Part shown: positions 10,001-41,875 of the stretch, piece by piece
Numbering within the stretch: position 1 is the first letter of the stretch
How the letters are laid out: every line of letters begins with the position of its first letter
NCBI GenBank assembly: GCA_964016885.1
Contig: OZ024764.1
Coordinates: 2,914,001-2,978,000 of the forward strand
DNA: 64,000 nucleotides
Direction of reading: 5' to 3'
DNA from: Eledone cirrhosa
Lineage: Eukaryota
Program-made: the position numbers and the translations under genes
Notes under the pieces: generated by a model
Databases searched by the model: none
The model's input: the letters and a program-made list of their open reading frames with translations, nothing else
What the model was told of the DNA's origin: nothing

Positions 10001-10548
10001 GAGGGCGTGGGGTTGTTCCGAGTCCATAGTATCTAGAATAAGGACGGGTTCGAAGAAGTTTAGGGAGCTGCTTCCTTTGTTGACAAAGAAGAGTTTCTCC
10101 ACGTGTAGGAAAGGGCGGTGAGATGTGCCATGCTGCATGGTAGTGAGACATGGGCAGCAACTGCAGAGGATATGCGATGGCTGGAGAGAAATGAAGCAAG
10201 TATGCTCCGTTTGATGTGCAATGTCAGTGTGTGTGAACGACCAAGCATAGACAAGTTGAGAAAGAAACTGGGTATAAGAGGGATAAGTTGTAGTGTGCAG
10301 GAGAGAAGACTGTGATGTACATGGAGGATGACCGCTGGATAAAGAAGAGCCAAGAAATCCCAGCAGAAGGAAGACGCAGTAGAGGTAGACCACGAAAAAC
10401 ATGGGTGGAGGTGGTGAGAGCAGACCTCAGATCGCTGAGACTCACCGAGGAGATGACCGTGACAAGTGGAGAGATGCTGTGCTGAATAGGACCTGTCCAA
10501 CCCTTGCAAGCAGGGAAAAGCAGACGTAAAATGATGATGATGATGATG
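7062..10548 (+). mobile_element. Near-full-length degenerate RTE-clade LINE (family A): APE endonuclease and reverse transcriptase
   Basis: APE motifs TLNVGTL, VQEVRW, SAYAPQ, GDFNGH, SQID, QHRLVV. RT motifs KAAGPSG, NYRGIKL, QFGF, GVHQGSVLS, YADD, VNLAKTK. Cys-rich CSIC..CTQC..WVH segment and (GAT)n tail. Multiple stops and frameshifts. The 5' boundary (7062-7430) may include a separate SINE-like piece. Confidence 0.93.
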
Positions 10549-13500: not shown

Positions 13501-14223
13501 ATCCAGAGATTCTTACCTGAGACATTCTAACCACATGTCTGTAGTATCAGAGCTGTGGTCTCTCAATTCAGAGATTCTTTCCTGAGACATTCTAACCACA
13601 TGTCTGTAGTATCAGAGCTGTGATCTCTCAATTCAGAGATTCTTTCCTCAGACATTCTAACCACATGTCTGTAGTATCAGAGCTGTGATCTCTCAATTCA
13701 GAGATTCTTTCCTGAGACATTCTAACCACATGTCTGTAGTATCAGAGCTGTGATCTCTCAATTCAGAGATTCTTTCCTCAGACATTCTAACCACATGTCT
13801 GTAGTATCAGAACTGTGATCTCTCAATTCAGAGATTCTTTCCTCAGACATTCTAACCACATGTCTGTAGTATCAGAGCTGTGATCTCTCAATTCAGAGAT
13901 TCTTTCCTGAGACATTCTAACCGCATGTCTGTAGTATCAGAGCTGTGATCTCTCAATTCAGAGATTCGTTCCTCAGACATTCTAACCACATGTCTGTAGT
14001 ATCAGAGCTGTGATCTCTCAATTCAGAGATTCGTTCCTCAGACATTCTAACCACATGTCTGTAGTATCAGAGCTGTGATCTCTCAATTCAGAGATTCTTT
14101 CCTGAGACATTCTAACCACATGTCTGTAGTATCAGAGCTGTGATCTCTCAATTCAGAGATTCTTTCCTCAGACATTCTAACCACATGTCTGTAGTATCAG
14201 AGCTGTGATCTCACAATTCAGAG
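10549..14223. repeat. 65-bp minisatellite, about 56 copies (right part of array 1)
   Basis: Same unit, resuming in register after the LINE tail. Confidence 0.95.
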
Positions 14224-14458
14224 AAGTAGCAACTCTACTTGAAGTGGCTCTCTGATCTATGCACTTTATCGAGTAATGTTACTGCAAAGACGCTCTGGCG
14301 TAACCCAATTTCAGCCGCTTGTATTCGTGGTTGTATTCTTTCTGTCATTACCGAAGATTCATGGCCATAGGTAAGGGTTGGTATGAAAACCGAAGAAGAA
14401 GCCCTCCTCCACCAGCCTATTTTATTTGTTTTCTAATTTTATTCCTGTCTACTTTCAG

Positions 14459-14606
14459 GACTGCTGCTGATTATTACGATGTTGTGAGCACCCCTATTGA
14501 TCTCTTAAAGATTCAACAGAAACTGAAAACCGATGAATATGATGAACTGGAACAGTTTGCTGCAGATATTGAACTGATGGTGAGCAACACCAAGGCTTAC
14601 TACAGA
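14459..14606 (+). CDS. PBRM1: Polybromo-1 (BAF180) internal exon, bromodomain 1
   Basis: Polypyrimidine tract and TTTCAG acceptor (AG 14457-14458), GTAAGT donor at 14607. Translates (R)TAADYYDVVSTPIDLLKIQQKLKTDEYDELEQFAADIELMVSNTKAYYR, matching the PBRM1 BD1 pattern DYYEVVSQPIDLMKIQQKLK as I recall it. Confidence 0.93.
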
Positions 14607-16370
14607 GTAAGTAGTGTATTTCCATCTCTCTGGTGTTACAGAGGATTAACTGTTGTTTAGCCCTAGGTCAACAACACTGATCCTTACTATAGAGTATGTA
14701 CTCTCTCTCTGGTATTACAGAGGATTAACTGTTGTTTAACCCTAGGTCAACAACACAGCTTTACTATAGAGTATGTAGTCTCTCTCTCTCTGGTATTACA
14801 GAGGATTAACTGTTGTTTAACCCTAGGTCAACAACACAGCTTTACTATAGAGTATGTAGTCTCTCTCTCTGGTATTACAGAGGATTAACTGTTGTTTAAC
14901 CCTAGGCCAACAACACTGAGCCTTACTATAGAGTATGTAGTCTCTCTGGTATTACAGAGGATTAACTGTTGTTTAGCCCTAGGCCAACAATACTGAGCCT
15001 TACTATAGAGTATATAGTCTCTCTCTCTGGTATTACAGAGGATTAACTGTTGTTTAACCCTAGGTCAACAACACTGAGCCTTACTGTAGAGTATGTAGTC
15101 TCTCTCTCTGGTATTACAGAGGATTAACTGTTGTTTAGCCCTAGGTCAACAACACTGATCCTTACTATAGAGTATGTACTCTCTCTCTGGTGTTACAGAG
15201 GATTAACTGTTGTTTAACCCTAGGTCAACAACACAGCTTTACTATAGAGTATGTAGTCTCTCTCTCTGGTATTACAGAGGATTAACTGTTGTTTAGCCCT
15301 AGGTCAACAATACTGAGCCTTACTATAGAGTATGTAGTCTCTCTGGTATTACAGAGGATTAACTGTTGTTTAACCCTAGGCCAATAACACTGAGCCTTAC
15401 TATAGAGTATATAGTCTCTCTCTCTGGTATTACAGAGGATTAACTGTTGTTTAGCCCTAGGTCAACAATACTGAGCCTTACTATAGAGTATGTAGTCTCT
15501 TTCTGGTATTACAGAGGATTAACTGTTTAGCCCTAGGCCAACAATACTGAGCCTTACTATAGAGTATATAGTCTCTCTCTCTGGTATTACAGAGGATTAA
15601 CTGTTGTTTAGCCCTAGGTCAACAATACTGAGCTTAACTATAGAGTATATAGTCTCTCTCTCTGGTGTTACAGAGGATTAACTGTTGTTTAACCCTAGGT
15701 CAACAATAATAAGCCTTACTATAGAGCAGGCATGTCTAACTGAGGGTCCCCCATGTGTTGTCTGATGGCCACACATAACAACTATTTTTTCAAATTGTAT
15801 ATTAGAAAGTTAAAACATGCTCGCGCTGTAAAAACCTTCGTGTGGGATGCAGGTGTGCCTGTAAAGGGCCACATGTTTGATATGCCTGTTCTAGAGTATG
15901 TAGTATCTCTCTCACTCTCTGGTAATACAGAGGGCTGGAGAGTTAACTTGTTTAACCCTAGGTCAACAGACAGCCTTACTATAGAGTAACTAGTGTCTAT
16001 CTCTCCTTCATCTCCCTCTGTCTTTGGTAATACAGAGGGCTGGAGGGTTAACTGTTGTTTAACCCTAGGTCAACAGACAGCCTTACTATAGAGTAACTAG
16101 TGTCTATCTCTCCCTCATCTCCCTCTGTCTTTGGTAATACAGAGGGTTGGAGGGTTAACTGTTGTTTAACCCTAGGTCAACAGACAGCCTTACTATAGAG
16201 TAACTAGTGTCTCTCTCTCCCTCATCTCCCTCTGTCCTTGGTAATACAGAGGGCAGGAGGGTTAACTGTTGTTATGTTGTTATTTAGCCCTGAGTCAACA
16301 ATACTGAGCCTTATTAAAGAGTCTCTCTTTGATATTACAGAGGGCTGGAGGGTTAACTTGTTGGTGTTTA
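14585..16370 (+). repeat. ~80-bp tandem repeat (about 14 copies, then diverged ~107-bp copies) whose unit spans the exon donor junction
   Basis: Exon end CAACACCAAGGCTTACTACAGA|GTAAGT is echoed as CAACACTGAGCCTTACTATAGA|GTATGT in the units. Confidence 0.88.
15727..15888. mobile_element. hAT-like MITE inserted in the donor-spanning repeat
   Basis: CAGGCATGTC...GATATGCCTG termini, imperfect 8-bp TSD CTATAGAG/TTCTAGAG, homologous to 30627-30828. Confidence 0.8.
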
Positions 16371-18241: not shown

Positions 18242-21200
18242 GACCATGCCAATGTAATCTCCTCCCTAGTAAACTGTCTGACCCCTATTATACCATACCA
18301 ATGTAATCTCCCTAGTAAACTGTCTGACCCCTATTATACCATACCAATGTAATCTCCCTAGTAAACTGTCTGACCCCTATTATACCATACCAATGTAATC
18401 TCCTCCCTAGTAAACTGTCTGACCCCCTATTATACCATACCAATGTAATCTCTTCCCTAGTAAACTGTCTGACCCCTATTATATCATACCTATGTAATCT
18501 CCTCCCTAGTAAACTGTCTGACCCTCTATTATACCATACCTATGTAATCTCCTCCCTAGTAAACTGTCTCACCCTCTATTATACTATACCTATGTAATCT
18601 CCTCCCTAGTAAACTGTCTGACCCCTATTATACCATACCAATGTAATCTCCTCCCTAGTAAACTGTCTGACCCCCTATTATACCATACCAATGTAATCTC
18701 TTCCCTAGTAAACTGTCTGACCCCTATTATATCATACCTATGTAATCTCCTCCCTAGTAAACTGTCTGACCCTCTATTATACCATACCTATGTAATCTCC
18801 CTAGTAAACTGTCTGACCTCTATTATACCATACCTATGTAATCTCCTCCCTAGTAAACTGTCTGACCCCCTATTATACCATACCTATGTAATCTCCTCCC
18901 TAGTAAACTGTCTGACCCCCTATTATACCATACCAATGTAATCTCCCTAGTAAACTGTCTGACCCCTATTATACCATACCAATGTAATCTCCTCCCTAGT
19001 AAACTGTCTGACCCCCTATTATACCATACCAATGTAATCTCCTCCCTAGTAAACTGTCTGACCCTCTATTATACCATACCTATGTAATCTCCTCCCTAGT
19101 AAACTGTCTGACCCCCTATTATACCATACCTATGTAATCTCCTCCCTAGTAAACTGTCTGACCCCCTATTATACCATACCTATGTAATCTCCTCCCTAGT
19201 AAACTGTCTGACCTCTATTATACCATACCTATGTAATCTCCTCCCTAGTAAACTGTCTGACCCCCTATTATACCATACCTATGTAATCTCCTCCCTAGTA
19301 AACTGTATGACCCCTATTATACCATACCAATGTAATCTCCTCCCTAGTAAACTGTCTGACCCCTATTATACCATACCTATGTAATCTCCTCCCTGGTAAA
19401 CTGTCTGACCCCTATTATACCATACCTATGTAATCTCCTCCCTAGTAAACTGTCTGACCCCCTATTATACCATACCTATGTAATCTCCTCCCTAGTAAAC
19501 TGTCTGACCCCTATTATACCATACCTATGTAATCTCCTCCCTAGTAAACTGTCTGACCTCTATTATACCATACCTATGTAATCTCCTCCCTAGTAAACTG
19601 TCTGACCCCCTATTATACCATACCTATGTAATCTCCCTAGTAAACTGTCTGACCCTCTATTATACCATACCTATGTAATCTCCTCCTTAGTAAACTGTCT
19701 GACCCCTAGTAAACTGTCTCACCCTCTATTATACCATACCTATGTAATCTCCTCCCTAGTAAACTGTCTGACCCCTATTATACCATACCTATGTAATCTC
19801 CTCCCTAGTAAACTGTCTGACCCCCTATTATACCATACCTATGTAATCTCCTCCCTAGTAAACTGTCTGACCCTCTATTATACCATACCTATGTAATCTC
19901 CTCCCTAGTAAACTGTCTGACCCCCTATTATACCAAACCTATGTAATCTCCTCCCTAGTAAACTGTCTGACCTCTATTATACCATACCTATGTAATCTCC
20001 TCCCTAGTAAACTGTCTGACCTCTATTATACCATACCTATGTAATCCCCTCCCTAGTAAACTGTCTGACCTCTATTATACCATACCTATGTAATCTCCTC
20101 CCTAGTAAACTGCCTGACCCCTAGTAGACTGTCTGACCCCTATTATACCATACCAATGTAATCTCCTCCCTAGTAAACTGTCTGACCTCTATTATACCAT
20201 ACCTATCTAATCTCCTCCCTAGTAAACTGTCTGACCACTATTATACCATACCTATGTAATCCCCTCCCTAGTAAACTGTCTGACCCCCTATTATACCATA
20301 CCTATGTAATCTCCTCCCTAGTAAACTGTCTGACCCCCTATTATACCATACCTATGTAATCTCCTCCCTAGTAAACTGTCTGACCCTCTATTATACCAAA
20401 CCTATGTAATCTCCTCCCTAGTAAACTGTCTGACCCCCTATTATACCATACCTATGTAATCTCCTCCCTAGTAAACTGTCTGACCCCCTATTATACCATA
20501 CCTATGTAATCTCCTCCCTAGTAAACTGTCTGACCCCTAGTAAACTGTCTGACCCTCTATTATACCAAACCTATGTAATCTCCTCCCTAGTAAACTGTCT
20601 GACCCCTAGTAAACTGTCTGACCCCCTATTATACCATACCTATGTAATCTCCTCCCTAGTAAACTGTCTGACCCCCTATTATACCATACCAATGTAATCT
20701 CCTCCCTAGTAAACTGTCTGACCCCTAGTAAACTGTCTGACCCTCTATTATACCAAACCCATGTAATCTCCTCCCTAGTAAACTGTCTGACCCCTAGTAA
20801 ACTGTCTGACCCCCTATTATACCATACCTATGTAATCTCCTCCCTAGTAAACTGTCTGACCCCTAGTAAACTGTCTGACCCCCTATTATACCATACCTAT
20901 GTAATCTCCTCCCTAGTAAACTGTCTGACCCCTAGTAAACTGTCTGACCCCCTATTATACCATACCTATGTAATCTCCTCCCTAGTAAACTGTCTGACCC
21001 CTAGTAAACTGTCTGACCCCCTATTATACCATACCTATGTAATCTCCTCCCTAGTAAACTGTCTGACCCCCTATTATACCATACCTATGTAATCTCCTCC
21101 CTAGTAAACTGTCTGACCCCTAGTAAACTGTCTGACCCTCTATTATACCAAACCTATGTAATCTCCTCCCTAGTAAACTGTCTGACCCCTAGTAAACTGT

Positions 21201-24200
21201 CTGACCCCCTATTATACCATACCTATGTAATCTCCTCCCTAGTAAACTGTCTGACCCCCTATTATACCATACCTATGTAATCTCCTCCCTAGTAAACTGT
21301 CTGACTCCCTATTATACCATACCTATGTAATCTCCTCCCTAGTAAACTGTCTGACCCCCTATTATACCATACCTATGTAATCTCCTCCCTAGTAAACTGT
21401 CTGACCCCCTATTATACCATACCTATGTAATCTCCTCCCTAGTAAACTGTCTGACCCCCTATTATACCATACCTATGTAATCTCCCCCCTAGTAAACTGT
21501 CTGACCCCCTATTATACCATACCTATGTAATCTCCTCCCTAGTAAACTGTCTGACCCTCTATTATACCAAACCTATGTAATCTCCTCCCTAGTAAACTGT
21601 CTGACCCCTAGTAAACTGTCTGACCCCCTATTATACCATACCTATGTAATCTCCTCCCTAGTAAACTGTCTGACCCCCTATTATACCATACCTATGTAAT
21701 CTCCTCCCTAGTAAACTGTCTGACCCCTAGTAAACTGTCTGACCCTCTATTATACCAAACCTATGTAATCTCCTCCCTAGTAAACTGTCTGACCCCTAGT
21801 AAACTGTCTGACCCCCTATTATACCATACCTATGTAATCTCCTCCCTAGTAAACTGTCTGACCCCTAGTAAACTGTCTGACCCCCTATTATACCATACCT
21901 ATGTAATCTCCTCCCTAGTAAACTGTCTGACCCCTAGTAAACTGTCTGGCCCCCTATTATACCATACCTATGTAATCTCCTCCCTAGTAAACTGTCTGAC
22001 CCCCTATTATACCATACCTATGTAATCTCCTCCCTAGTAAACTGTCTGACCCCTAGTAAACTGTCTGACCCCCTATTATACCATACCTATGTAATCTCCT
22101 CCCTAGTAAACTGTCTGACCCCCTATTATACCATACCTATGTAATCTCCTCCCTAGTAAACTGTCTGACCCCTAGTAAACTGTCTGACCCTCTATTATAC
22201 CAAACCTATGTAATCTCCTCCCTAGTAAACTGTCTGACCCCTAGTAAACTGTCTGACCCCCTATTATACCATACCTATGTAATCTCCTCCCTAGTAAACT
22301 GTCTGACCCCTAGTAAACTGTCTGACCCCCTATTATACCATACCTATGTAATCTCCTCCCTAGTAAACTGTCTGACCCCTAGTAAACTGTCTGACCCCCT
22401 ATTATACCATACCTATGTAATCTCCTCCCTAGTAAACTGTCTGACCCCTAGTAAACTGTCTGACCCCCTATTATACCATACCTATGTAATCTCCTCCCTA
22501 GTAAACTGTCTGACCCCTAGTAAACTGTCTGGCCCCCTATTATACCATACCTATGTAATCTCCTCCCTAGTAAACTGTCTGACCCCCTATTATACCATAC
22601 CTATGTAATCTCCTCCCTAGTAAACTGTCTGACCCCTAGTAAACTGTCTGACCCCCTATTATACCATACCTATGTAATCTCCTCCCTAGTAAACTGTCTG
22701 ACCCCCTATTATACCATACCTATGTAATCTCCTCCCTAGTAAACTGTCTGACCCCTAGTAAACTGTCTGACCCTCTATTATACCAAACCTATGTAATCTC
22801 CTCCCTAGTAAACTGTCTGACCCCTAGTAAACTGTCTGACCCCCTATTATACCATACCTATGTAATCTCCTCCCTAGTAAACTGTCTGACCCCTAGTAAA
22901 CTGTCTGGCCCCCTATTATACCATACCTATGTAATCTCCTCCCTAGTAAACTGTCTGACCCTCTATTATACCAAACCTATGTAATCTCCTCCCTAGTAAA
23001 CTGTCTGACCCCTAGTAAACTGTCTGACCCCCTATTATACCATACCTATGTAATCTCCTCCCTAGTAAACTGTCTGACCCCCTATTATACCATACCTATG
23101 TAATCTCCTCCCTAGTAAACTGTCTGACTCCCTATTATACCATACCTATGTAATCTCCTCCCTAGTAAACTGTCTGACCCCCTATTATACCATACCTATG
23201 TAATCTCCCCCCTAGTAAACTGTCTGACCCCCTATTATACCATACCTATGTAATCTCCTCCCTAGTAAACTGTCTGACCCCTAGTAAACTGTCTGACCCC
23301 CTCTTATACCATACCTATGTAATCTCCTCCCTAGTAAACTGTCTGACCCCCTATTATACCATACCTATGTAATCTCCTCCCTAGTAAACTGTCTGACCCC
23401 CTATTATACCATACCTATGTAATCTCCTCCCTAGTAAACTGTCTGACCCCCTATTATACCATACCTATGTAATCTCCCCCCTAGTAAACTGTCTGACCCC
23501 CTATTATACCATACCTATGTAATCTCCTCCCTAGTAAACTGTCTGACCCTCTATTATACCATACCTATGTAATCTCCTCCCTAGTAAACTGTCTGACCCT
23601 CTATTATACCATACCTATGTAATCTCCTCCCTAGTAAACTGTCTGACCCCTAGTAAACTGTCTGACCCCCTCTTATACCATACCAATGTAATCTCCTCCC
23701 TAGTAAACTGTCTGACCCCTAGTAAACTGTCTGACCCCCTATTATACCATACCTATGTAATCTCCTCCCTAGTAAACTGTCTGACCCCCTATTATACCAT
23801 ACCTATGTAATCTCCTCCCTAGTAAACTGTCTGACCCTCTATTATACCATACCTATGTAATCTCCTCCCTAGTAAACTGTCTGACCCCCTCTTATACCAT
23901 ACCAATGTAATCTCCTCCCTAGTAAACTGTCTGACCCCTAGTAAACTGTCTGACCCCCTATTATACCATACCTATGTAATCTCCTCCCTAGTAAACTGTC
24001 TGACCCCCTATTATACCATACCTATGTAATCTCCTCCCTAGTAAACTGTCTGACCCCCTATTATACCATACCTATGTAATCTCCCCCCTAGTAAACTGTC
24101 TGACCCCCTATTATACCATACCTATGTAATCTCCTCCCTAGTAAACTGTCTGACCCTCTATTATACCATACCTATGTAATCTCCTCCCTAGTAAACTGTC

Positions 24201-26432
24201 TGACCCTCTATTATACCATACCTATGTAATCTCCTCCCTAGTAAACTGTCTGACCCCTAGTAAACTGTCTGACCCCCTCTTATACCATACCTATGTAATC
24301 TCCTCCCTAGTAAACTGTCTGACCCCTAGTAAACTGTCTGACCCCCTATTATACCATACCTATGTAATCTCCTCCCTAGTAAACTGTCTGACCCCCTATT
24401 ATACCATACCTATGTAATCTCCTCCCTAGTAAACTGTCTGACCCCTAGTAAACTGTCTGACCCCCTATTATACCATACCTATGTAATCTCCTCCCTAGTA
24501 AACTGTCTGACCCCTAGTAAACTGTCTGACCCCCTATTATACCATACCTATGTAATCTCCTCCCTAGTAAACTGTCTGACCCCTAGTAAACTGTCTGGCC
24601 CCCTATTATACCATACCTATGTAATCTCCTCCCTAGTAAACTGTCTGACCCCCTATTATACCATACCTATGTAATCTCCTCCCTAGTAAACTGTCTGACC
24701 CCTAGTAAACTGTCTGACCCCCTATTATACCATACCTATGTAATCTCCTCCCTAGTAAACTGTCTGACCCCCTATTATACCATACCTATGTAATCTCCTC
24801 CCTAGTAAACTGTCTGACCCCTAGTAAACTGTCTGACCCTCTATTATACCAAACCTATGTAATCTCCTCCCTAGTAAACTGTCTGACCCCTAGTAAACTG
24901 TCTGACCCCCTATTATACCATACCTATGTAATCTCCTCCCTAGTAAACTGTCTGACCCCTAGTAAACTGTCTGGCCCCCTATTATACCATACCTATGTAA
25001 TCTCCTCCCTAGTAAACTGTCTGACCCTCTATTATACCAAACCTATGTAATCTCCTCCCTAGTAAACTGTCTGACCCCTAGTAAACTGTCTGACCCCCTA
25101 TTATACCATACCTATGTAATCTCCTCCCTAGTAAACTGTCTGACCCCCTATTATACCATACCTATGTAATCTCCTCCCTAGTAAACTGTCTGACTCCCTA
25201 TTATACCATACCTATGTAATCTCCTCCCTAGTAAACTGTCTGACCCCCTATTATACCATACCTATGTAATCTCCCCCCTAGTAAACTGTCTGACCCCCTA
25301 TTATACCATACCTATGTAATCTCCTCCCTAGTAAACTGTCTGACCCCTAGTAAACTGTCTGACCCCCTCTTATACCATACCTATGTAATCTCCTCCCTAG
25401 TAAACTGTCTGACCCCCTATTATACCATACCTATGTAATCTCCTCCCTAGTAAACTGTCTGACCCCCTATTATACCATACCTATGTAATCTCCTCCCTAG
25501 TAAACTGTCTGACCCCCTATTATACCATACCTATGTAATCTCCCCCCTAGTAAACTGTCTGACCCCCTATTATACCATACCTATGTAATCTCCTCCCTAG
25601 TAAACTGTCTGACCCTCTATTATACCATACCTATGTAATCTCCTCCCTAGTAAACTGTCTGACCCTCTATTATACCATACCTATGTAATCTCCTCCCTAG
25701 TAAACTGTCTGACCCCTAGTAAACTGTCTGACCCCCTCTTATACCATACCAATGTAATCTCCTCCCTAGTAAACTGTCTGACCCCTAGTAAACTGTCTGA
25801 CCCCCTATTATACCATACCTATGTAATCTCCTCCCTAGTAAACTGTCTGACCCCCTATTATACCATACCTATGTAATCTCCTCCCTAGTAAACTGTCTGA
25901 CCCTCTATTATACCATACCTATGTAATCTCCTCCCTAGTAAACTGTCTGACCCCTAGTAAACTGTCTGACCCCCTCTTATACCATACCAATGTAATCTCC
26001 TCCCTAGTAAACTGTCTGACCCCTAGTATACTGTCTGACCCCCTATTATACCATACCTATGTAATCTCCTCCCTAGTAAACTGTCTGACCCCCTATTATA
26101 CCATACCTATGTAATCTCCTCCCTAGTAAACTGTCTGACCCCCTATTATACCATACCTATGTAATCTCCCCCCTAGTAAACTGTCTGACCCCCTATTATA
26201 CCATACCTATGTAATCTCCTCCCTAGTAAACTGTCTGACCCTCTATTATACCATACCTATGTAATCTCCTCCCTAGTAAACTGTCTGACCCCTAGTAAAC
26301 TGTCTGACCCCCTCTTATACCATACCTATGTAATCTCCTCCCTAGTAAACTGTCTGACCCCTAGTAAACTGTCTGACCCCCTATTATACCATACCTATGT
26401 AATCTCCTCCCTAGTAAACTGTCTGACCCCCC
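18242..26432. repeat. 50-bp minisatellite with 69-bp variants (internal 19-bp duplication), ~8.2 kb
   Basis: Unit CTATTATACCATACCTATGTAATCTCCTCCCTAGTAAACTGTCTGACCCC. Minus strand reads SLLGRRLHWYG. Confidence 0.95.
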
Positions 26433-26498
26433 CGCCCGCTCCTCTGACCCCTAATTCCTCTCCCAGTACACTCACCCTTTCCTGCTCTCTATTTGCAG

Positions 26499-27449
26499 AA
26501 GAGCTCTCAGGAGTACAAGGACGCCTGCGATCTCTGGCAAATCTTCCAGGCAACGAGGAACGAGTTGATATCGGAGGTGTTTGGGGAGCCCCTCCCTCCT
26601 CCCGCTGCCGCGTCCCTCACCCCAGGGGCCGGCTCCTCTGGTGTCTCTACTGTGACAGCAGTGATGCAGCAGAGTGCACCACCACCACCGCCGCAGCCAC
26701 ACCACCAACACCAACAACAGCAGCAGCCAACCATCAGCTGCGCGGAGGCTGCCGCGGCTGCTGCCACTGCTGCAGTTGCTGCAGCAGCTGCTGAGTCTGC
26801 TGCCGCCGCAGCCGCCGCCGCCGCTGCTGCTGCGGCGGGCAACCCCGCCGCCTCCTCCGTGCCATCTGGTGGAGGCTTGACCCCCGGGCCGGAGCGCAGG
26901 CGGAGTGCCAGAAAGAACCAGATGGACGGTGGTGGTGGTGGTGGTGTAGGGACAGTCGTGGCGATGGGAGGAGGGGGAAGTGGCGGCGTGCATGCCCCCC
27001 AGCCCCACCGGGCCACCACCGCCGCCGCCGTCTCTGCTGCTGGTGGTGGTGGTGGTGGTGGTGGCGGCGGCGGTGGTGGTGGTGATGAAATGGACGACAT
27101 GGAAGACGAGGACGACGATGACGATGACGAGACCTCGAAGGACGGCGTCTCCCTTCCGTCCATGGCCCTCTCGTCGACGGCGGGGCCCTCCTCGGCGCAC
27201 CACCAGCAGCAGCAGCAGCAGCAGCAGCACCAACACCACCACCACCATCACCACCACCACATGCGGGCTGCTGCTTCCGGTACCCCCAACACCACCTCCG
27301 CTGGTAACACTCCCGTCGGTTCGTCGGAGCACGTGATGCTCTCCAGCGAGGATGCGATGGAGATCAACCAGCTCTACACGGCCATCATTACCGCGAAGGA
27401 CGGAGATCGAGACATTAGCGAAGTCTTCCAGCGACTCCCGCCGAGATCT
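26499..27449 (+). CDS. PBRM1: Polybromo-1 internal exon: end of BD1, low-complexity linker, start of BD2
   Basis: TTTGCAG acceptor, GTGAGT donor at 27450, 951 nt, phase 0-0. Begins KSSQEYKDACDLWQIFQATRNE (continues BD1 in frame) and ends RDISEVFQRLPPRS (BD2 ZA loop). Confidence 0.9.
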
Positions 27450-27503
27450 GTGAGTATTATACACTGGCTTTGTCTTTGTCTTTGTGTTGTATGTCATGTC
27501 AGG

Positions 27504-30489
27504 CAGGGTTGGGCAACATATTCCATTGGGGGGTCAGGGGCCACTTTTGAACAGTGGGACAACTATTAGGGCCATTAATATTTATTAAACACTATTCCAA
27601 AGATTCACCACAACTTTTTTCCATAACATGGAACTGGGATATTATAACACATAACCCTATCAGTGAAGCCCTTTAGTATAGGTCAACTAGGGAATTATAA
27701 CATATAACCCTATCAGTGAAGCCCTTTAGTATAGGTCAACTGGGATATTATAACATATAACCCTATCAGTGAAGCCCTTTAGTATAGGTCAACTGGGGAA
27801 TTAAAACATATAACCCTATCAGTGAAGCCCTTTAGTATAGGTCAACTGGGAAATTATAACATATAACCCTATCAGTGAAGCCCTTTAGTATAGGTCAACT
27901 GGGGAATTATAACATATAACCCTATCAGTGAAGCCCTTTAGTATAGGTCAACTGGGAAATTATAACATATAACCCTATCAGTGAAGCCCTTTAGTATAGG
28001 TCAACTGGGAAATTATAACATATAACCCTATCAGTGAAGCCCTTTAGTATAGGTCAACTGGGGAATTATAACATATAACCCTATCAGTGAAGCCCTTTAG
28101 TATAGGTCAACTGGGAAATTATAACATATAACCCTATCAGTGAAGCCCTTTAGTATAGGTCAACTGGGGAATTATAACATATAACCCTATCAGTGAAGCC
28201 CTTTAGTATAGGTCAACTGGGATATTATAACATATAACCCTATCAGTGAAGCCCTTTAGTATAGGTCAACTGGGGAATTATAACACACATAACCCTATCA
28301 GTGAAGTCCTTTAGTATAGGTCAACTGGGGAATTATAACACAACCCTATCAGTGAAGCCCTTTAGTATAGGTCAACTGGGGAATTATAACATATAACCCT
28401 ATCAGTGAAGCCCTTTAGTATAGGTCAACTGGGAAATTATAACATATAACCCTATCAGTGAAACCCTTTAGTATAGGTCAACTGGGGAATTATAACATAT
28501 ATAATCCTATCAGTGAAGCCCTTTAGTATAGGTCAACTGGGGAATTGTAACATATAACCCTATCAGTGAAGCCCTTTAGTATAGGTCAACTAGGGAATTA
28601 TAACATATAACCCTATCAGTGAAGCCCTTTAGTATAGGTCAACTGGGGAATTATAACATATATAATCCTATCAGTGAAGCCCTTTAGTATAGGTCAACTG
28701 GGGAATTGTAACATATAACCCTATCAGTGAAGCCCTTTAGTATAGGTCAACTGGGGAATTATAACATATATAATCCTATCAGTGAAGCCCTTTAGTATAG
28801 GTCAACTGGGGAATTATAACATATAACCCTATCAGTGAAGCCCTTTAGTATAGGTCAACTGGGATATTATAACATATAACCCTATCAGTGAAGCCCTTTA
28901 GTATAGGTCAACTGGGGAATTAAAACATATAACCCTATCAGTGAAACCCTTTAGTATAGGTCAACTGGGGAATTATAACACATATAACCCTATCAGTGAA
29001 GCCCTTTAGTATAGGTCAACTGGGATATTATAACATATAACCCTATCAGTGAAGCCCTTTAGTATAGGTCAACTGGGGAATTAAAACATATAACCCTATC
29101 AGTGAAACCCTTTAGTATAGGTCAACTGGGGAATTATAACATATAACCCTATCAGTGAAACCCTTTAGTATAGGTCAACTGGGAAATTAAAACATATAAC
29201 CCTATCAGTGAAGCCCTTTAGTATAGGTCAACTGGGGAATTATAACATATAACCCTATCAGTGAAGCCCTTTAGTATAGGTCAACTGGGGAATTATAACA
29301 CATAACCCTATCAGTGAAGCCCTTTAGTATAGGTCAACTGGGAAATTATAACATATAACCCTATCAGTGAAGCCCCTTAGTATAGGTCAACTGGGGAATT
29401 ATAACATATAACCCTATCAGTGAAGCCCTTTAGTATAGGTCAACTGGGGAATTATAACATATAACCCTATCAGTGAAGCCCTTTAGTATAGGTCAACTGG
29501 GAAATTATAACATATAACCCTATCAGTGAAACCCTTTAGTATAGGTCAACTGGGGAATTATAACACATATAACCCTATCAGTGAAGCCCCTTAGTATAGG
29601 TCAACTGGGGAATTACAACACATATAACCCTATCAGTGAAGCCCCTTAGTATAGGTCAACTGGGGAATTATAACACATATAACCCTATCAGTGAAGCCCC
29701 TTAGTATAGGTCAACTGGGGAATTATAACACATAACCCTATCAGTGAAGCCCTTTAGTATAGGTCAACTGGGAAATTATAACATATAACCCTATCAGTGA
29801 AGCCCCTTAGTATAGGTCAACTGGGAAATTATAACATATAACCCTATCAGTGAAGCCCTTTAGTATAGGTCAACTGGGATATTATAACATATAACCCTAT
29901 CAGTGAAACCCTTTAGTATAGGTCAACTGGGGAATTATAACACATAACCCTATCAGTGAAGCCCTTTAGTATAGGTCAACTGGGAAATTATAACATATAA
30001 CCCTATCAGTGAAGCCCCTTAGTATAGGTCAACTGGGAAATTATAACATATAACCCTATCAGTGAAGCCCCTTAGTATAGGTCAACTGGGAAATTATAAC
30101 ATATAACCCTATCAGTGAAGCCCTTTAGTATAGGTCAACTGGGAAATTATAACATATAACCCTATCAGTGAAGCCCTTTAGTATAGGTCAACTGGGGAAT
30201 TATAACATATAACCCTATCAGTGAAGCCCTTTAGTATAGGTCAACTGGGATATTATAACATATAACCCTATCAGTGAAACCCTTTAGTATAGGTCAACTG
30301 GGGAATTATAACACATATAACCCTACCAGTGAAGCCCCTTAGTATAGGTCAACTAACAGAAGTATTATGGTTACGAAAAAAATTGTAAATAAGCCTACAA
30401 GGGAAAAATTAAAAATGGTCATTGCGGGCCACTCTGACTGGTCTGGTGGGCCGGATTGTGGCCCGCGGGCCGCCTGTTGTACGCCCCTG
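27504..30489. mobile_element. hAT-like non-autonomous element carrying a 53-bp array
   Basis: Termini CAGGGTTGGGCAAC ... GTTGTACGCCCCTG, subterminal GGCCCGCGGGCC motif, degenerate 8-bp TSD ATGTCAGG/GTGTAAGG. Confidence 0.65.
27632..30353. repeat. 53-bp minisatellite, about 51 copies
   Basis: Unit ACTGGGGAATTATAACATATAACCCTATCAGTGAAGCCCTTTAGTATAGGTCA. Confidence 0.95.
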
Positions 30490-30626
30490 GTGTAAGGTGT
30501 CTGGTGTGAGGAAGTGGTCTCAGTTGTAGAAACCTTGGAGAAAAGGATCGAGGGCTCCCTTTCACTTGTGACCACAGCTTCTCAGCCCTTTTAGTACTGG
30601 TGTCATTGGAAATGCATCCTGTATGG

Positions 30627-30828
30627 CAGGCATGTCAAATTGAGGGTCTCCCAAGAACCACATGGGTCACTTATGTGTTGTCTGAGGGCCACACATAACA
30701 ACTAATTGCACACATTACAACTAATTTTTTAAATTTTATGTTAAAAAGATTTAAAATGTTTTGCACTGTAAAAACCTTTGTGTGGGCCGCAGATGTGCCT
30801 GTAAAGCGCCGCATGTTTGACATGCCTG
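30627..30828. mobile_element. hAT-family MITE
   Basis: Perfect 13-bp TIR CAGGCATGTCAAA/TTTGACATGCCTG and perfect 8-bp TSD CTGTATGG. Confidence 0.92.
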
Positions 30829-30931
30829 CTGTATGGTGTCTGGTGTGAGGAAGTGCTGCCAATCGTAGGAAACGTGGTGAAAAAAGGGTCGCGGGGACCC
30901 CTTTCACTTATGACACAACACAACAGCCTAT

Positions 30932-31102: not shown

Positions 31103-31499
31103 TTAAATCACCGAAGACACCTCCGAGATATACCTTGGAGGAGGCCTGCTAAACCTGCATAGGTGTCACAACAACAACAATAGCCCTTCTAGAACTGGTG
31201 CCCCCCCAAAATGCATCATGTAAGGTGTTTGGTGTGAGGAAGTGGGCCCTGTCATAGAAACCTTGGCAAAAAACAGGGTTGAGGAGGCCATTTCAGTCGT
31301 GACACCACAGGCCCTCTTATGCTGGTGCCATGATAAAACACACCCAGTACTTTCTGTAAGGTGGTTGGTATTAGGAAGAGCTCCCTGTTGTAGAAACCAA
31401 GTTGTTGCCATGACAGTCAAGAGGGTTTTTCACTCATGACACAATGACCTCTCTAGTTCAAGGGCCACGAAAAATGCATTGAGTGTGTTCCGCTCTGTG

Positions 31500-31953
31500 A
31501 GTTATTGACTGCAGATATATTTGTATTTCTGGCTAGAAGTACCCACTCCTTTCCTCAGTCAGTAGTTGACTGTACCTGTTGCCAGAAGTACCTGCCCTCT
31601 CCTCTCTGTGTGATCGACTGCACATATACTTCCACCTGTTGCCAGAAGTACCTACTCCCCCTCCTCTCTCATTAGTTAATTCCACATATACTTCCGTCTG
31701 CCACCAGAAGTACTGGCCCATTCTCTCTGAGTGGTTAACTCCACATATACAACTGCCTGTTGCCAGAAGTACCCAACCCCTCCTCTCTGATTAGTTAACT
31801 CCACATATACTTGAGTCTATTGCCAGAAGTACCCACCCTCTCCTCTCTCATTAGTTAACTCCACATATACTTGAGTCTATTGCCAGAAGTACCCACCCTC
31901 TCCTCTCTGACCAGTCGACTGCACATATGTTTGTGTTTATTGCCAGAAGTACC
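31500..31953 (+). repeat. ~60-bp tandem repeat, 8 copies, spanning the exon acceptor junction
   Basis: YAG|AAGTAC with the G of AG at 31536, 31585, 31645, 31707, 31766, 31826, 31886 and 31946 (true site). Confidence 0.88.
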
Positions 31954-32114
31954 CGAAATACTATGAGATCATCAAAGAGCCAATTGATCTGAAGTTGATA
32001 GCTCAACGAATACAGGAATCCTATTACCCAAATGTCACCATGCTTGAGAAGGACCTGTTGCTCATGATAAAGAATGCCAAAACCTTCAACGAACCCCGTT
32101 CGCAAGTATACAGG
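31947..32114 (+). CDS. PBRM1: Polybromo-1 internal exon, bromodomain 2
   Basis: TGCCAG acceptor, GTAAGT donor at 32115, 168 nt. My translation (not in the ORF track): KYPKYYEIIKEPIDLKLIAQRIQESYYPNVTMLEKDLLLMIKNAKTFNEPRSQVYR, with the PBRM1 BD2 hallmarks IIKEPIDLK.IAQRIQ and KNAKT.NEP.SQV. Confidence 0.93.
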
Positions 32115-32445
32115 GTAAGTACACGGCCTACTTTATAAGAATCAGAATTGTAGTTGTAAAAAAAATTTTGGTGTATTTTTGTTTTTCGTCTCTCTCTCTT
32201 TCTCTCTTCTCCTTTTTCCCCCCCTGCTGGGGTGGGGGGTGGGACAGATGGGTAGTTTAATTTGGGATGGACAGGTGGGTGCTGTTTGCTATGGGTAGTT
32301 TAATTTGGGGTGGTAGTGGTGCTGCACATGCAGGTAGTTTAGTTTAGGGTGGTGAGGGTTGTGGTGGGTAGGTGGGTAGTTTAATTTGGGGTGGTGGACA
32401 TTGGCTAGTTTAATTTGGATGGTGGTGGGCAGGTTGGTAGTTTAA

Positions 32446-33939
32446 CCCTTTCGCATTTACATTACTCTATATATACTATTGTATTTTCACAGTAAAGGCT
32501 TTACCTCACATAATATCTCACATAACATTTACATTACTCTATATATACTATTGTATTGTCACAGTAAAGGCTTTACCTCACATAATATCTCACATAACAT
32601 TTACATTACTCTATATATACTATTGTATTGTCACAGTAAAGGCTTTACCTCACATAATACCTCACATAGCATTTACATTACTCTATATATACTATTGTAT
32701 TTTCACAGTAAAGGCTTTACCTCACATAATACCTCACATAACTTTTACATTACTCTATATATACTATTGTATTTTCATGGTAAAGGCTTTACTTCACATA
32801 ATATCTCACATAACATTTACTACTCTACATATACTATTGTATTTTCATGGTAAAGGCTTTACCTCACATAATACCTCACATAACATTTACATTACTCTAT
32901 ATATACTATTGTATTTTCATGGTAAAGGCTTTACCTCACATAATATCTCACATAACATTTACATTACTCTATATATACTATTGTATTTTCACAGTAAAGG
33001 CTTTACCTCACATAATACCTCACATAACATTTACATTACTCTATATATACTATTGTATTTTCATGGTAAAGGCTTTACCTCACATAATATCTCACATAAC
33101 ATTTACATTACTCTATATATACTATTGTATTGTCACAGTAAAGGCTTTACCTCACATAATATAGAATCTATGAAATTTTGATGTTATTTATTTTGAGAAC
33201 AATACCTTAACATCAGTATGAGTAGTCGGTTATGGCCAGTTTAAACAGAAAGAGGTTAGAGAATTCTGGTCACATATAGCTTGTTTAAATGCTAAAGGGT
33301 TAAACTGGCCAGAATTCTCTCACCTTTTTCTGTTCAAATTGGTCGTAACTGGCTGCTCATACTGATGTTAAGGTATTGTTCTCAAAATGTCATAGATTCG
33401 ATATTATATGAGGTAAAGCTTTTACTGTGAAAATTCAATAGTATATGTAGAGTAATGTAAATGTTATGTGAGGTAAAGCCTTTACTGTGAAAATACAATA
33501 GTATATATAGAGTAATGTAAATGTTATGTGAGGTAAAGACTTTACTGTGAAAATACAATAGTATATATAGAGTAATGTAAATGTTATGTGAGATATTATG
33601 TGAGGTAAAGCCTTTACTGTGAAAATACAATAGTATATATAGAGTAATGTAAATGTTATGTGAGGTGAAGCCTTTACTGTGAAAATACAATAGTATATAT
33701 AGAGTAATGTAAATGTTATGTGGGATATTATGTGAGGTAAAGCCTTTACTGTGAAAATACAATAGTATATATAGAGTAATGTAAATGTTATGTGGGATAT
33801 TATGTGAGGTAAAGCCTTTACTGTGAAAATACAATAGTATATATAGAGTAATGTAAATGTTATGTGGGATATTATGTGAGGTAAAGCCTTTATTACAAAA
33901 ATACAATAGTATATATAGAGTAATGTAAATGCGAAAGGG
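32446..33939. mobile_element. Inverted dimer of a piggyBac-like (TTAA) MITE with internal 60/71-bp minisatellites
   Basis: TTAA-CCCTTTCGCATTTAC ... GTAAATGCGAAAGGG-TTAA, with an internal terminus GCTAAAGGG-TTAA at 33291-33303. The two arrays are in opposite orientation. Confidence 0.82.
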
Positions 33940-35534: not shown

Positions 35535-38500
35535 TTCTTTTTTTCCTTCACCCACTTATTCCTGAGAGGGTCATGCAGGCAGTGTCCTCAAAGCACTCTT
35601 TCTGCCAGGTTCTGTCAGAAGCAACAGTCTCCAATTGATCCAGCTGGATCCCCAAGTAAGACCAGCTGAGGTCATGGATATTAACTACCCCTGGGTCTCC
35701 TGTCGGTTGGTTTTAACCACATGTCTGTAGTATCAGAGCTGTGGTCTCTCAATTCAGAGATTCTTTCCTAAGACATTCTAACCACATGTCTGTAGTATCA
35801 GAGCTGTGGTCTCTCAATTCAGAGATTCTTTCCTGAGACATTCTAACCACATGTCTGTAGTATCAGAGCTGTGGTCTCTCAATTCAGAGATTCTTTCCTG
35901 AGACATTCTAACCACATGTCTGTAGTATCAGAGCTGTGATCTCTCCATTCAGAGATTCTTTCCTGAGACATTCTAACCACATGTCTGTAGTATCAGAGCT
36001 GTGGTCTCTCAATTCAGAGATTCTTTCCTGAGACATTCTAACCACATGTCTGTAGTATCAGAGCTGTGGTCTCTCAATTCAGAGATTCTTTCCTCAGACA
36101 TTCTAACCACATGTCTGTAGTATCAGAGCTGTGATCTCTCAATTCAGTGATTCTTTCCTGAGACATTCTAACCACATGTCTGTAGTATCAGAGCTGTGGT
36201 CTCTCAATCCAGAGATTCTTTCCTGAGACATTCTAACCACATGTCTGTAGTATCAGAGCTGTGATCTCTCAATTCAGAGATTCTTACCTGAGACATTCTA
36301 ACCACATGTCTGTAGTATCAGAGCTGTGGTCTCTCAATTCAGAGATTCTTTCCTGAGACATTCTAACCACATGTCTGTAGTATCAGAGCTGTGGTCTCTC
36401 AATTCAGTGATTCTTTCCTGAGACATTCTAACCACATGTCTGTAGTATCAGAGCTGTGATCTCTCAATTCAGAGATTCTTTCCTGAGACAATCTAACCAC
36501 ATGTCTGTAGTATCAGAGCTGTGGTCTCTCAATTCAGAGATTCTTTCCTGAGACAATCTAACCACATGTCTGTAGTATCAGAGCTGTGGTCTCTCAATTC
36601 AGAGATTCTTTCCTGAGACAATCTAACCACATGTCTGTAGTATCAGAGCTGTGGTCTCTCAATTCAGAGATTCTTTCCTGAGACATTCTAACCACATGTC
36701 TGTAGTATCAGAGCTGTGGTCTCTCAATTCAGAGATTCTTTCCTGAGACATTCTAACCACATGTCTGTAGTATCAGAGCTGTGATCTCTCAATTCAGAGA
36801 TTCTTTCCTGAGACATTCTAACCACATGTCTGTAGTATCAGAGCTGTGGTCTCTCAATTCAGTGATTCTTTCCTGAGACATTCTAACCACATGTCTGTAG
36901 TATCAGAGCTGTGATCTCTCAATTCAGAGATTCTTTCCTGAGACATTCTAACCACATGTCTGCAGTATCAGAGCTGTGATCTCTCAATTCAGTGATTCTT
37001 TCCTGAGACATTCTAACCACATGTCTGTAGTATCAGAGCTGTGGTCTCTCAATTCAGTGATTCTTTCCTGAGACATTCTAACCACATGTCTGTAGTATCA
37101 GAACTGTGGTCTCTCAATTCAGAGATTCTTTCCTGAGACATTCTACCCACATGTCTGTAGTATCAGAGCTGTGGTCTCTCAATTCAGTGATTCTTTCCTG
37201 AGACATTCTAACCACATGTCTGTAGTATCAGAGCTGTGATCTCTCAATTCAGTGATTCTTTCCTGAGACATTCTAACCACATGTCTGTAGTATCAGAGCT
37301 GTGGTCTCTCAATTCAGTGATTCTTTCCTGAGACATTCTAACCACATGTCTGTAGTATCAGAGCTGTGATCTCTCAATTCAGTGATTCTTTCCTGAGACA
37401 TTCTAACCACATGTCTGTAGTATCAGAGCTGTGATCTCTCAATTCAGAGATTCTTTCCTGAGACATTCTAACCACATGTCTGTAGTATCAGAGCTGTGGT
37501 CTCTCAATTCAGTGATTCTTTCCTGAGACATTCTAACCACATGTCTGTAGTATCAGAGCTGTGATCTCTCAATTCAGAGATTCTTTCCTGAGACATTCTA
37601 ACCACATGTCTGTAGTATCAGAGCTGTGATCTCTCAATTCAGTGATTCTTTCCTGAGACATTCTAACCACATGTCTGTAGTATCAGAGCTGTGATCTCTC
37701 AATTCAGAGATTCTTACCTGAGACATTCTAACCATATGTCTGTAGTATCAGAGCTGTGATCTCTCAATTCAGAGATTCTTTCCTGAGACATTCTAACCAC
37801 ATGTCTGTAGTATCAGAGCTGTGATCTCTCAATTCAGAGATTCTTTCCTCAGACATTCTAACCCCATGTCTGTAGTATCAGAGCTGTGATCTCTCAATTC
37901 AGAGATTCTTTCCTCAGACATTCTAACCACATGTCTGTAGTATCAGAGCTGTGGTCTCTCAATTCAGTGATTCTTTCCTGAGACATTCTAACCACATGTC
38001 TGTAGTATCAGAGCTGTGATCTCTCAATTCAGAGATTCTTTCCTGAGACATTCTAACCACATGTCTGTAGTATCAGAGCTGTGGTCTCTCAATTCAGTGA
38101 TTCTTTCCTGAGACATTCTAACCACATGTCTGTAGTATCAGAGCTGTGGTCTCTCAATTCAGTGATTCTTTCCTGAGACATTCTAACCACATGTCTCTAG
38201 TATCAGAGCTGTGATCTCTCAATTCAGAGATTCTTTCCTGAGACATTCTAACCACATGTCTGTAGTATCAGAGCTGTGATCTCTCAATTCAGTGATTCTT
38301 TCCTGAGACATTCTAACCACATGTCTGTAGTATCAGAGCTGTGATCTCTCAATTCAGAGATTCTTTCCTGAGACATTCTAACCACATGTCTGTAGTATCA
38401 GAGCTGTGGTCTCTCAATTCAGTGATTCTTTCCTGAGACATTCTAACCACATGTCTGTAGTATCGGAGCTGTGGTCTCTCAATTCAGTGATTCTTTCCTG

Positions 38501-41500
38501 AGACATTCTACCCACATGTCTGTAGTATCAGAGCTGTGATCTCTCAATTCAGAGATTCTTTCCTGAGACATTCTAACCACATGTCTGTAGTATCAGAGCT
38601 GTGATCTCTCAATTCAGAGATTCTTTCCTGAGACATTCTAACCACATGTCTGTAGTATCAGAGCTGTGATCTCTCAATTCAGTGATTTTTTTTCCCCCAG
38701 ACATTCTAACCACATGTCTGTAGTGTCAGAGCTGTGGTCTCTCAATCCAGAGATTCTTTCCTGAGACATTCTAACCACATGTCTGTAGTATCAGAGCTGT
38801 GGTCTCTCAATTAAGAGATTCTTTCCTGAGACATTCTACCCACATGTCTGTAGTATCAGAGCTGTGGTCTCTCAATTCAGAGATTCTATCCTGAGACATT
38901 CTAACCCCATGTCTGTAGTATCAGAGCTGTGATCTCTCAATCCAGAGACTCTTTCCTGAGACATTCTAACCACATGTCTGTAGTATCAGAGCTGTGATCT
39001 CTCAATTCAGAGATTCTTTCCTGAGACATTCTAACCACATGTCTGTAGTATCAGAGCTGTGATCTCTCAATTCAGAGATTCTTTCCTGAGACATTCTAAC
39101 CACATGTCTGTAGTATCAGAGCTGTGATCTCTCAATTCAGAGATTCTTTCCTGAGACATTCTAACCACATGTCTGTAGTATCAGAGCTGTGATCTCTCAA
39201 TTCAGTGATTTTTTTTCCCCCAGACATTCTAACCACATGTCTGTAGTGTCAGAGCTGTGGTCTCTCAATCCAGAGATTCTTTCCTGAGACATTCTAACCA
39301 CATGTCTGTAGTATCAGAGCTGTGGTCTCTCAATTAAGAGATTCTTTCCTGAGACATTCTAACCGCATGTCTGTAGTATCAGAGCTGTGGTCTCTCAATT
39401 CAGAGATTCTTTCCCGAGACATTCTAACCGCATGTCTGTAGTATCAGAGCTGTGATCTCTCAATTCAGAGATTCTTTCCTCAGACATTCTAACCACATGT
39501 CTGTAGTATCAGAGCTGTGGTCTCTCAATTCAGAGATTCTTTCCTTAGACATTCTAACCACATGTCTGTAGTATCAGAGCTGTGGTCTCTCAATTCAGAG
39601 ATTCTTTCCTGAGACATTCTAACCACATGTCTGTAGTATCAGAGCTGTGGTCTCTCAATTCAGAGATTCTTTCCCGAGACATTCTAACCACATGTCTGTA
39701 GTATCAGAGCTGTGATCTCTCAATTCAGTGATTTTTTTTTCCCCAGACATTCTAACCACATGTCTGTAGTATCAGAGCTGTGGTCTCTCAATTCAGAGAT
39801 TCTTTCCTGAGACATTCTAACCGCATGTCTGTAGTATCAGAGCTGTGATCTCTCAATTCAGAGATTCTTTCCTGAGACATTCTAACCGCATGTCTGTAGT
39901 ATCAGAGCTGTGGTCTCTCAATTCAGAGATTCTTTCCTGAGACATTCTAACCACATGTCTGTAGTATCAGAGCTGTGGTCTCTCAATTCAGAGATTCTTT
40001 CCTGAGACATTCTAACCACATGTCTGTAGTATCAGAGCTGTGGTCTCTCAATTCAGAGATTCTTTCCTGAGACATTCTAACCACATGTCTGTAGTATCAG
40101 AGCTGTGGTCTCTCAATTCAGAGATTCTTTCCTGAGACATTCTAACCACATGTCTGTAGTATCAGAGCTGTGATCTCTCAATTCAGTGATTTTTTTTTCC
40201 CCAGACATTCTAACCACATGTCTGTAGTATCAGAGCTGTGGTCTCTCAATTCAGAGATTCTTTCCTGAGACATTCTAACCACATGTCTGTAGTATCAGAG
40301 CTGTGGTCTCTCAATTCAGAGATTCTTTCCTGAGACATTCTAACCACATGTCTGTAGTATCAGAGCTGTGGTCTCTCAATTCAGAGATTCTTTCCTGAGA
40401 CATTCTAACCACATGTCTGTAGTATCAGAGCTGTGATCTCTCAATTCAGAGATTCTTTCCTGAGACATTCTAACCACATGTCTGTAGTATCAGAGCTGTG
40501 ATCTCTCAATTCAGAGATTCTTTCCTGAGACATTCTAACCACATGTCTGTAGTATCAGAGCTGTGATCTCTCAATTCAGTGATTTTTTTTTCCCCAGACA
40601 TTCTAACCACATGTCTGTAGTATCAGAGCTGTGGTCTCTCAATTCAGTGATTTTTTTCCCCCCAGACATTCTAACCACATGTCTGTAGTATCAGAGCTGT
40701 GGTCTCTCAATTCAGTGATTTTTTTCCCCCCAGACATTCTAACCACATGTCTGTAGTATCAGAGCTGTGGTCTCTCAATTCAGAGATTCTTTCCTGAGAC
40801 ATTCTAACCGCATGTCTGTAGTATCAGAGCTGTGATCTCTCAATTTAGAGATTCTTTCCTGAGACATTCTAACCACATCTCTGTAGTATCAGAGCTGTGG
40901 TCTCTCAATTCAGAGATTCTTTCCTGAGACATTCTAACCGCATGTCTGTAGTATCAGAGCTGTGATCTCTCAATTCAGAGATTCTTTCCTGAGACATTCT
41001 AACCGCATGTCTGTAGTATCAGAGCTGTGATCTCTCAATTCAGAGATTCTTCCTCAGACATTCTAACCACATGTCTGTAGTATCAGAGCTGTGATCTCTC
41101 AATTCAGAGATTCTTTCCTCAGACATTCTAACCACATGTCTGTAGTATCAGAGCTGTGGTCTCTCAATTCAGAGATTCTTTCCTCAGACATTCTAACCAC
41201 ATATCTGTAGTATCAGAGCTGTGATCTCTCAATTCAGAGATTCTTTCCTCAGACATTCTAACCACATGTCTGTAGTATCAGAGCTGTGATCTCTCAATTC
41301 AGAGATTCTTTCCTGAGACATTCTAACCACATGTCTGTAATATCAGAGCTGTGATCTCTCAATTCAGAGATTCTTTCCTGAGACATTCTAACCACATGTC
41401 TGTAGTATCAGAGCTGTGATCTCTCAATCCAGAGATTCTTTCCTGAGACATTCTAACCACATGTCTGTAGTATCAGAGCTGTGATCTCTCAATTCAGAGA

Positions 41501-41875
41501 TTCTTTCCTCAGACATTCTAACCACATGTCTGTAGTATCAGAGCTGTGATCTCTCAATTCAGAGATTCTTTCCTGGGACATTCTAACCACATGTCTGTAG
41601 TATCAGAGCTGTGATCTCTCAGTTCAAAGAAGTAGTGGCTCTTCCTGGAGTGACTCTCTGATCTCTGAGCTCTGTTGTGTAACGTTACGCTAACGACACT
41701 TCAGAGAAAGCCCATTTCATCCGCTTGTATTCACAATCATATTCTTTCATTCATTATCCAAGATTCATGACCATTGCTAAGGGTTGGCATTAATAGCGAA
41801 TTGAAGATAGCGAGTTTGGCTTTTACACTTAACTCTCATTATTGAACACTGAAGCTAACACATTACTGCAGTTGT
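35535..41875 (-). mobile_element. LINE family B fragment, copy 2, with a ~90-copy 65-bp array (35714-41628)
   Basis: Same flanks as copy 1 (TTCACCCACTTATTCCTGAGAGGGTC on the left; AGAAGTAG...CCGCTTGTATTC...AAGATTCATGACCA on the right). Confidence 0.88.

Follow-up and report, generated by a model that had tools for sequence, protein, structure and literature searches.

Eight tandem copies of a splice-acceptor junction before a polybromo-1 exon of Eledone cirrhosa: a 'mirage' minisatellite, probably neutral

The intron that leads into the bromodomain 2 exon of polybromo-1 (PBRM1) in the cephalopod Eledone cirrhosa ends in eight head-to-tail copies of its own acceptor junction. The copies lie in a 64,000-nucleotide stretch of contig OZ024764.1 (assembly GCA_964016885.1, positions 2,914,001 to 2,978,000 of the forward strand), which is called the window here and from whose first letter all positions are counted. 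The array belongs to a kind of minisatellite published under the name 'mirage'. It is probably tolerated, neutral intron sequence, the seven upstream copies being ignored by the spliceosome.

Three PBRM1 exons lie on the + strand of the window. The first (14459-14606, 148 nt) is the bromodomain 1 (BD1) exon, with the authentic donor GTAAGT at 14607. The second (26499-27449, 951 nt), delimited by translation and tblastn, contains the end of BD1, a low-complexity linker and the start of bromodomain 2 (BD2), and its donor is GTGAGT at 27450. In the stretch from BD1 to BD2 this exon has long runs of Ala, Gly, Gln, His and Asp, which are more expanded than in Octopus sinensis and cuttlefish. The acceptor of this exon is also CAG-AAG, and the Lys there is kept in all homologs checked. 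The third exon, ending at 32114, encodes BD2 and matches residues 216-271 of human PBRM1 in a phmmer search; its best homologs are cephalopod, with 91% identity in O. sinensis and 87-88% in cuttlefish. As found in a spliced contig it measures 165 nt (31950-32114) and starts Tyr-Pro-Lys. Counted from the first AG it would start at 31947 and measure 168 nt, with one extra Lys. Searches by tblastn with four homologs found no further PBRM1 exon in the window, including the 32 kb from 32115 to 64000, so the intron after the BD2 exon is longer than 31.8 kb.

Two side observations concern the sequence joined after the BD2 exon. The spliced contig stops 5 letters into the next exon, beyond 32114-32115, and in the cuttlefish isoform P0005 the BD2 exon is joined to the tail of bromodomain 3 (BD3; DACRL) instead of DAVTL. 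One might guess that two exons with a common 5-letter start caused the contig break near 32115. It is likewise a guess that skipping between the BD2 exon and the BD3 tail could give a hybrid BD2/BD3 bromodomain.

The array covers 31493-31954 on the + strand (period 60 by TRF, extent by self-BLAST) and consists of eight units of 49-62 nt. The first-pass annotation of this DNA had pointed to eight recurrences of YAG-AAGTAC. The motif does occur eight times in the 64-kb window, always on the + strand and always between 31534 and 31952, where chance would give 0.003 per 450 nt. Copies 1 to 7 (31493-31894), the decoys, have first AGs ending at 31536, 31585, 31645, 31707, 31766, 31826 and 31886. The authentic acceptor, copy 8 (31895-31949), carries a tandem CAG-AAG at 31944-31949, the G of its first AG being 31946. 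Successive spacings are 49, 60, 62, 59, 60, 60 and 60 nt, and the last four copies are thus 60 nt apart and in frame, as had been claimed; the coordinates given with that claim were mixed, 31886 being the G of an AG and 31947 a first exon base. Each unit comprises the last 40-50 nt of the intron, YAG-AAG and a likeness to the exon start of 6-8 nt, counted from the first AG. YAG-AAG is intact in all eight, giving two AGs per copy. Pairwise identity in the alignment is 58-85%, and 98% between copies 6 and 7; in a tree of the eight units none of the five inner branches is supported. The repeated unit is the gene's own junction, and self-BLAST finds it nowhere else in the window. In copy 8 there is a branch-point-like CTGAC at 31907-31911, which, judged by the consensus motif, is the putative branch point.

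Might such a structure be a repeat that was mis-expanded in assembly? This is almost certainly not so. The whole array is not spanned by any one contig, and runs X1 and X2, which represent one sample, possibly the assembly's own, may come from the very sample from which the window was assembled. The DNA contigs of these two runs nevertheless tile 31380-32230 with 0 differences, and the units differ from one another by up to 42%. A 59-nt piece common to copies 6 and 7 stands at exactly double depth in both runs (8 vs 4, and 25.6 vs 12), so the copy number there is right. The sample of X1 and X2 shows no length variant of the array. RAD-seq run X5, from another sample, gave six reads, all outside it.

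Which of the copies is used? Four of the seven listed runs were compared over 31380-32230, and acceptor use is read from one spliced contig of one of them, X4. The library type of this run is not on record; that two exon ends are joined in its contig is the one reason for taking it to be likely RNA. The contig (389 nt, depth 13.3) has 0 differences from the window over 31950-32115 and extends 219 letters upstream of 31950. The junction is deduced from a loose end of 30 letters, which is identical to 27420-27449, the last 30 nt of the 951-nt exon. The donor GT at 27450 and the acceptor AG at 31948-31949 are thus the sites used, and exon end 27449 is joined in frame to 31950. The first-pass annotation had held that only the last copy is productive, at 31947, and had proposed looking for junctions from 27449 to each AG. 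The last copy is indeed the one used in this contig, and it alone keeps the frame, since the rest of the exon follows it only. The exon start is 31950, and the single X4 contig joins neither a decoy nor 31947. No X4 contig lies on the decoys (31380-31930); contigs drop rare forms, so minor decoy use is compatible with this result.

Because the second AG of CAG-AAG is used, Lys is absent from the X4 product. Nine of the ten proteins examined from the cephalopod cluster carry this junction, seven as PPRS-YPKY and two as PPRS-K-YPKY; the nine are not independent, five being isoforms of one cuttlefish gene that has both forms. Lys is absent in O. vulgaris and one further assembly and present in O. 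sinensis. The proximal-AG form was seen only in two of nine homolog proteins, from other species, and the distal AG is used in this organism. Forms with and without one residue, both of which exist among cephalopod PBRM1 proteins, are what NAGNAG acceptors produce. The preference given in the part of PMC2699507 drawn on here is CAG > TAG > AAG > GAG, and the contig, unlike that order, takes the distal AAG. Distal-AG use leaves a BD2 loop of three residues between LP and YP; the first 17 homologs contain 45 such motifs, and in 43 of them the loop has four residues. The short loop may represent a one-residue variation of the acetyl-lysine pocket loop common to cephalopods as a whole.

Splicing to a decoy would not give a normal product. 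From each of the 14 AGs in copies 1-7 the reading frame runs into a premature stop, which lies 204-545 nt short of the donor at 32114. Two such routes had been pointed out before and hold up: 31886 gives KYPPSPL and the TGA at 31908-31910, and 31826 reaches a TGA at 31872. Splicing at 31766 ends likewise, at a TGA at 31788. Transcripts with premature stops are subject to nonsense-mediated decay (NMD), and by the 50-nt rule stops that far upstream would trigger it.

Are the decoys then regulated poison acceptors, with NMD of decoy-spliced pre-mRNA tuning polybromo-1 dose? All 14 decoy AGs do stop that far ahead of the next junction, no copy has lost its junction core and a YTRAY branch-like motif is present in six of the seven decoys. 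The idea, which was raised in the first-pass annotation, is very unlikely all the same, as the stops need no selection. Four of seven decoys are out of frame. The other three are in frame, and their routes all read through copy 7, where one TGA closes them; the TGA that stops the copy-7 route sits inside the CTGAC (31907-31911) of the real acceptor. Shuffled in-frame units contain a stop in 35-46% of cases (35% for copy 7). The decoy stops are therefore no sign of design. The contigs show no decoy use, although the empty stretch of X4 at 31380-31930 is a weak argument, contigs showing presence only. Published mirages, in the parts of PMC3087553 and PMC3902484 used here, leave splicing undisturbed.

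Intact cores and diverged flanks do stand as a counter-point to a neutral reading: YAG-AAG-TAC is kept in 8/8 copies while the rest diverged to 58-85%. The intact core could reflect constraint or homogenisation. The neutral mirage, grown probably by the turnover that is ordinary for minisatellites, is the preferred reading. A local duplication across the junction would have come first, and slippage or unequal exchange would then have amplified it. The youngest copies would be 6 and 7, and the others would have drifted. From the geometry, such a duplication would be tolerated only if the last copy wins splicing, as it does in the one spliced contig (27449 to the second AG of the last copy). Rare decoy use would be removed by nonsense-mediated decay.

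Why should the last copy win? Copy strength was ranked crudely, from sequence composition. The U-tract of copy 8 has 10 T of 17, and those of the decoys have 5-9. The AG-free stretch upstream is 30 nt in copy 8 and 9 nt in copies 6 and 7, which have an extra AG at -13. The purine fraction downstream is 0.60 for copy 8 and 0.20-0.37 for the decoys, which are followed by pyrimidine-rich sequence. An exon begun at copy 8 would be 165-168 nt long, and one begun at a decoy 225-578 nt. Acceptors are chosen in part by exon definition. Copy 8 would win on three counts: its U-tract is the best, the exon that follows it is rich in purines, and it lies nearest to the donor at 32114. Three observations run counter to simple versions of this account: the tract of copy 1 is nearly equal (9 T of 17), the junction core is intact in all eight copies, and the same gene tolerates a 951-nt exon.

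The closest relatives of the array are the mirages of amphioxus. In the part of PMC3087553 used here, tandem duplications of an intron 3' end plus the 5' part of an exon are described in the globin gene BflGb6, and donor-side tandem duplications in the globin gene BflGb9; the name is taken from the Adh3 case. Mirages are said there to have units of 10-160 bp, normal splicing and length instability, and the mechanism that generates them is called unclear. Troponin C and PGBD5 are further amphioxus examples in the available part of PMC3902484, and that of PMC2812944 counts 27 cases in which tandem repeats modified an intron among human duplicated genes. The present array has a head-to-tail unit that spans the junction, a spacing of 49-62 nt, YAG-AAG in 8/8 copies and one regularly spliced contig. 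The likeness to the amphioxus cases, as far as those excerpts describe them, extends to a unit across the exon-intron boundary, many copies that keep AG or GT, normal splicing, similar copy numbers (3-6 in BflGb6) and perhaps inner neighbours that are more alike. Those mirages, however, belong to a cephalochordate and have units 81-100% identical, whereas these belong to a cephalopod and are 58-98% identical. Here only 6-8 exon bases are copied, acceptor and donor arrays occur in one gene, and the NAGNAG in each acceptor unit brings the number of AGs to 16, unlike in the described amphioxus mirages. No cephalopod mirage or closer parallel was found in the open-access literature searched.

A human polymorphism offers a functional parallel. 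In CBS 844ins68 the boundary between intron 7 and exon 8 is duplicated, the distal copy is strongly favoured and the mRNA is normal, according to the portion of PMC2630376 used; that text words the sites as 'donor', and the study it cites concerns 3' splice-site selection. The acceptor array works like this insertion repeated seven times. CBS has one extra 68-bp copy, whereas here there are seven extra copies, partly decayed.

Mirages have been proposed as a route of intron gain (the same part of PMC3087553), and the first-pass annotation had suggested an intermediate of intron gain or sliding. In the Rogers model cited there, the duplicated unit would provide both a working donor and a working acceptor, through which the added sequence is removed as an intron. 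A micro-exon would arise from the exon-like bases of a decoy, and a new intron from the units that follow it. This is extremely unlikely here. It needs a donor behind a decoy, and no GTRAG follows any of them; the only one in the array, at 31497, precedes the first acceptor, which leaves no way to draw a cassette or micro-exon, and the suggestion fails at the level of the sequence. Just 6-8 exon bases are copied per unit, and in the proteins of cuttlefish and octopus the junction falls at an identical position.

The same gene has a second, donor-side array. It follows exon 14459-14606, as had been noticed, and occupies 14585-16363 on the + strand, with units that measure first about 81 nt and later 107 nt, each made of some 20 nt of likeness to the exon end and the start of the intron. 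There are at least 16 copies of the donor: GTATGT in nine, GTATAT in three, GTAACT in three and one interrupted by an insertion. GTAAGT occurs only at the real donor, in none of the 16 copies. The first copy downstream of the exon already has a stop. This array is matched directly by the 37-bp VNTR in intron 7 of human F7, whose edge unit spans the exon boundary and of which only the authentic site is used (from the part of PMC1557585 drawn on here). The F7 pseudo-sites are identical to the real donor; the copies here lack GTAAGT.

Do two arrays in one gene mean that splice junctions seed repeats? The earlier claim of junction-seeded repeats stands insofar as both arrays repeat in tandem a junction of the gene itself (the acceptor and the donor at 14606). 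The special process that it invoked is weakly hinted at. A process coupled to transcription or splicing might seed duplications preferentially at junctions, giving arrays that have no function but a non-random position; this is unlikely. Two of six junctions fall inside the terminal unit of a local array, and in both cases the copies occupy the intron side; the background is about 3.4% of non-interior positions. The binomial p for at least two of six is about 0.016, a post hoc value from a tiny sample of junctions, and it becomes about 0.16, for one of the remaining five, once the prompting junction is set aside. Purifying selection alone leaves an intron-side polarity. Tandem repetition is also general in the window, 50% of which lies in tandem arrays of period at least 40 and 59% in any tandem repeat. 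The 50-mer, 53-mer and 29-mer arrays span no junction. The 53-mer array lies in the same intron as the acceptor array, and so does an older tandem duplication, equally clear of junctions (30469-30572, 30808-30914, 31219-31331 and 31355-31398). A repeat-prone genome plus selection against expansion on the exon side suffices; a junction bias keeps a small probability.

One array was considered as a third junction-derived case and rejected. The 8-kb 50-mer array at 18243-26431, which has 19-mer sub-units, stops short of the acceptor at 26498 by about 67 nt, contains no junction copy, and its likeness to the acceptor flank is insignificant (9% of shuffles score as high). Its unit contains CTGAC, a pyrimidine-rich run and TAG, and thus looks like a pseudo-acceptor with no exon sequence.

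The window is rich in other repeats. Three elements, at 30628-30827, 15727-15889 and 27504-30487, have terminal inverted repeats and are flanked by 8-bp duplications (perfect at the first, imperfect at the other two), and they resemble hAT-type MITEs; one element of this sort interrupts the donor array and another carries a 51-copy 53-mer array. A decayed LINE-like element with endonuclease- and reverse-transcriptase-like sequence was recognized by eye at 7500-10550, and two arrays, of an 80-mer and a 49-mer, match parts of repeats that are dispersed elsewhere in the window. One 65-mer array occurs at five places (5674-7061, 10546-14224, 35714-41630, 56997-57650 and 61033-62405) with similar flanks, so that a mobile element probably carries it. 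A short way downstream of the BD2 exon, a 72-mer array (32454-33931) falls into two oppositely oriented blocks with a spacer between them, which make up a large inverted repeat; a further block lies at 55634-56017.

A bolder combination would have cephalopod minisatellites nucleate by preference at splice junctions, by a transcription- or splicing-coupled process, and decoy copy number send a share of the pre-mRNA into decay, as a heritable dial of the dose of polybromo-1, a chromatin remodeller. It is decidedly improbable.

The neutral mirage has significance of its own. Arrays such as these can mislead gene annotation. The acceptor array also offers a natural experiment on 3' splice-site choice, with 16 AGs in near-identical context, of which the last is used against the preference of CAG over AAG. 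An enrichment of such arrays at junctions genome-wide, if true, would matter much more, as the mechanism that generates mirages is called unclear in the part of PMC3087553 used here. With these copies, mirage minisatellites are extended to cephalopods.
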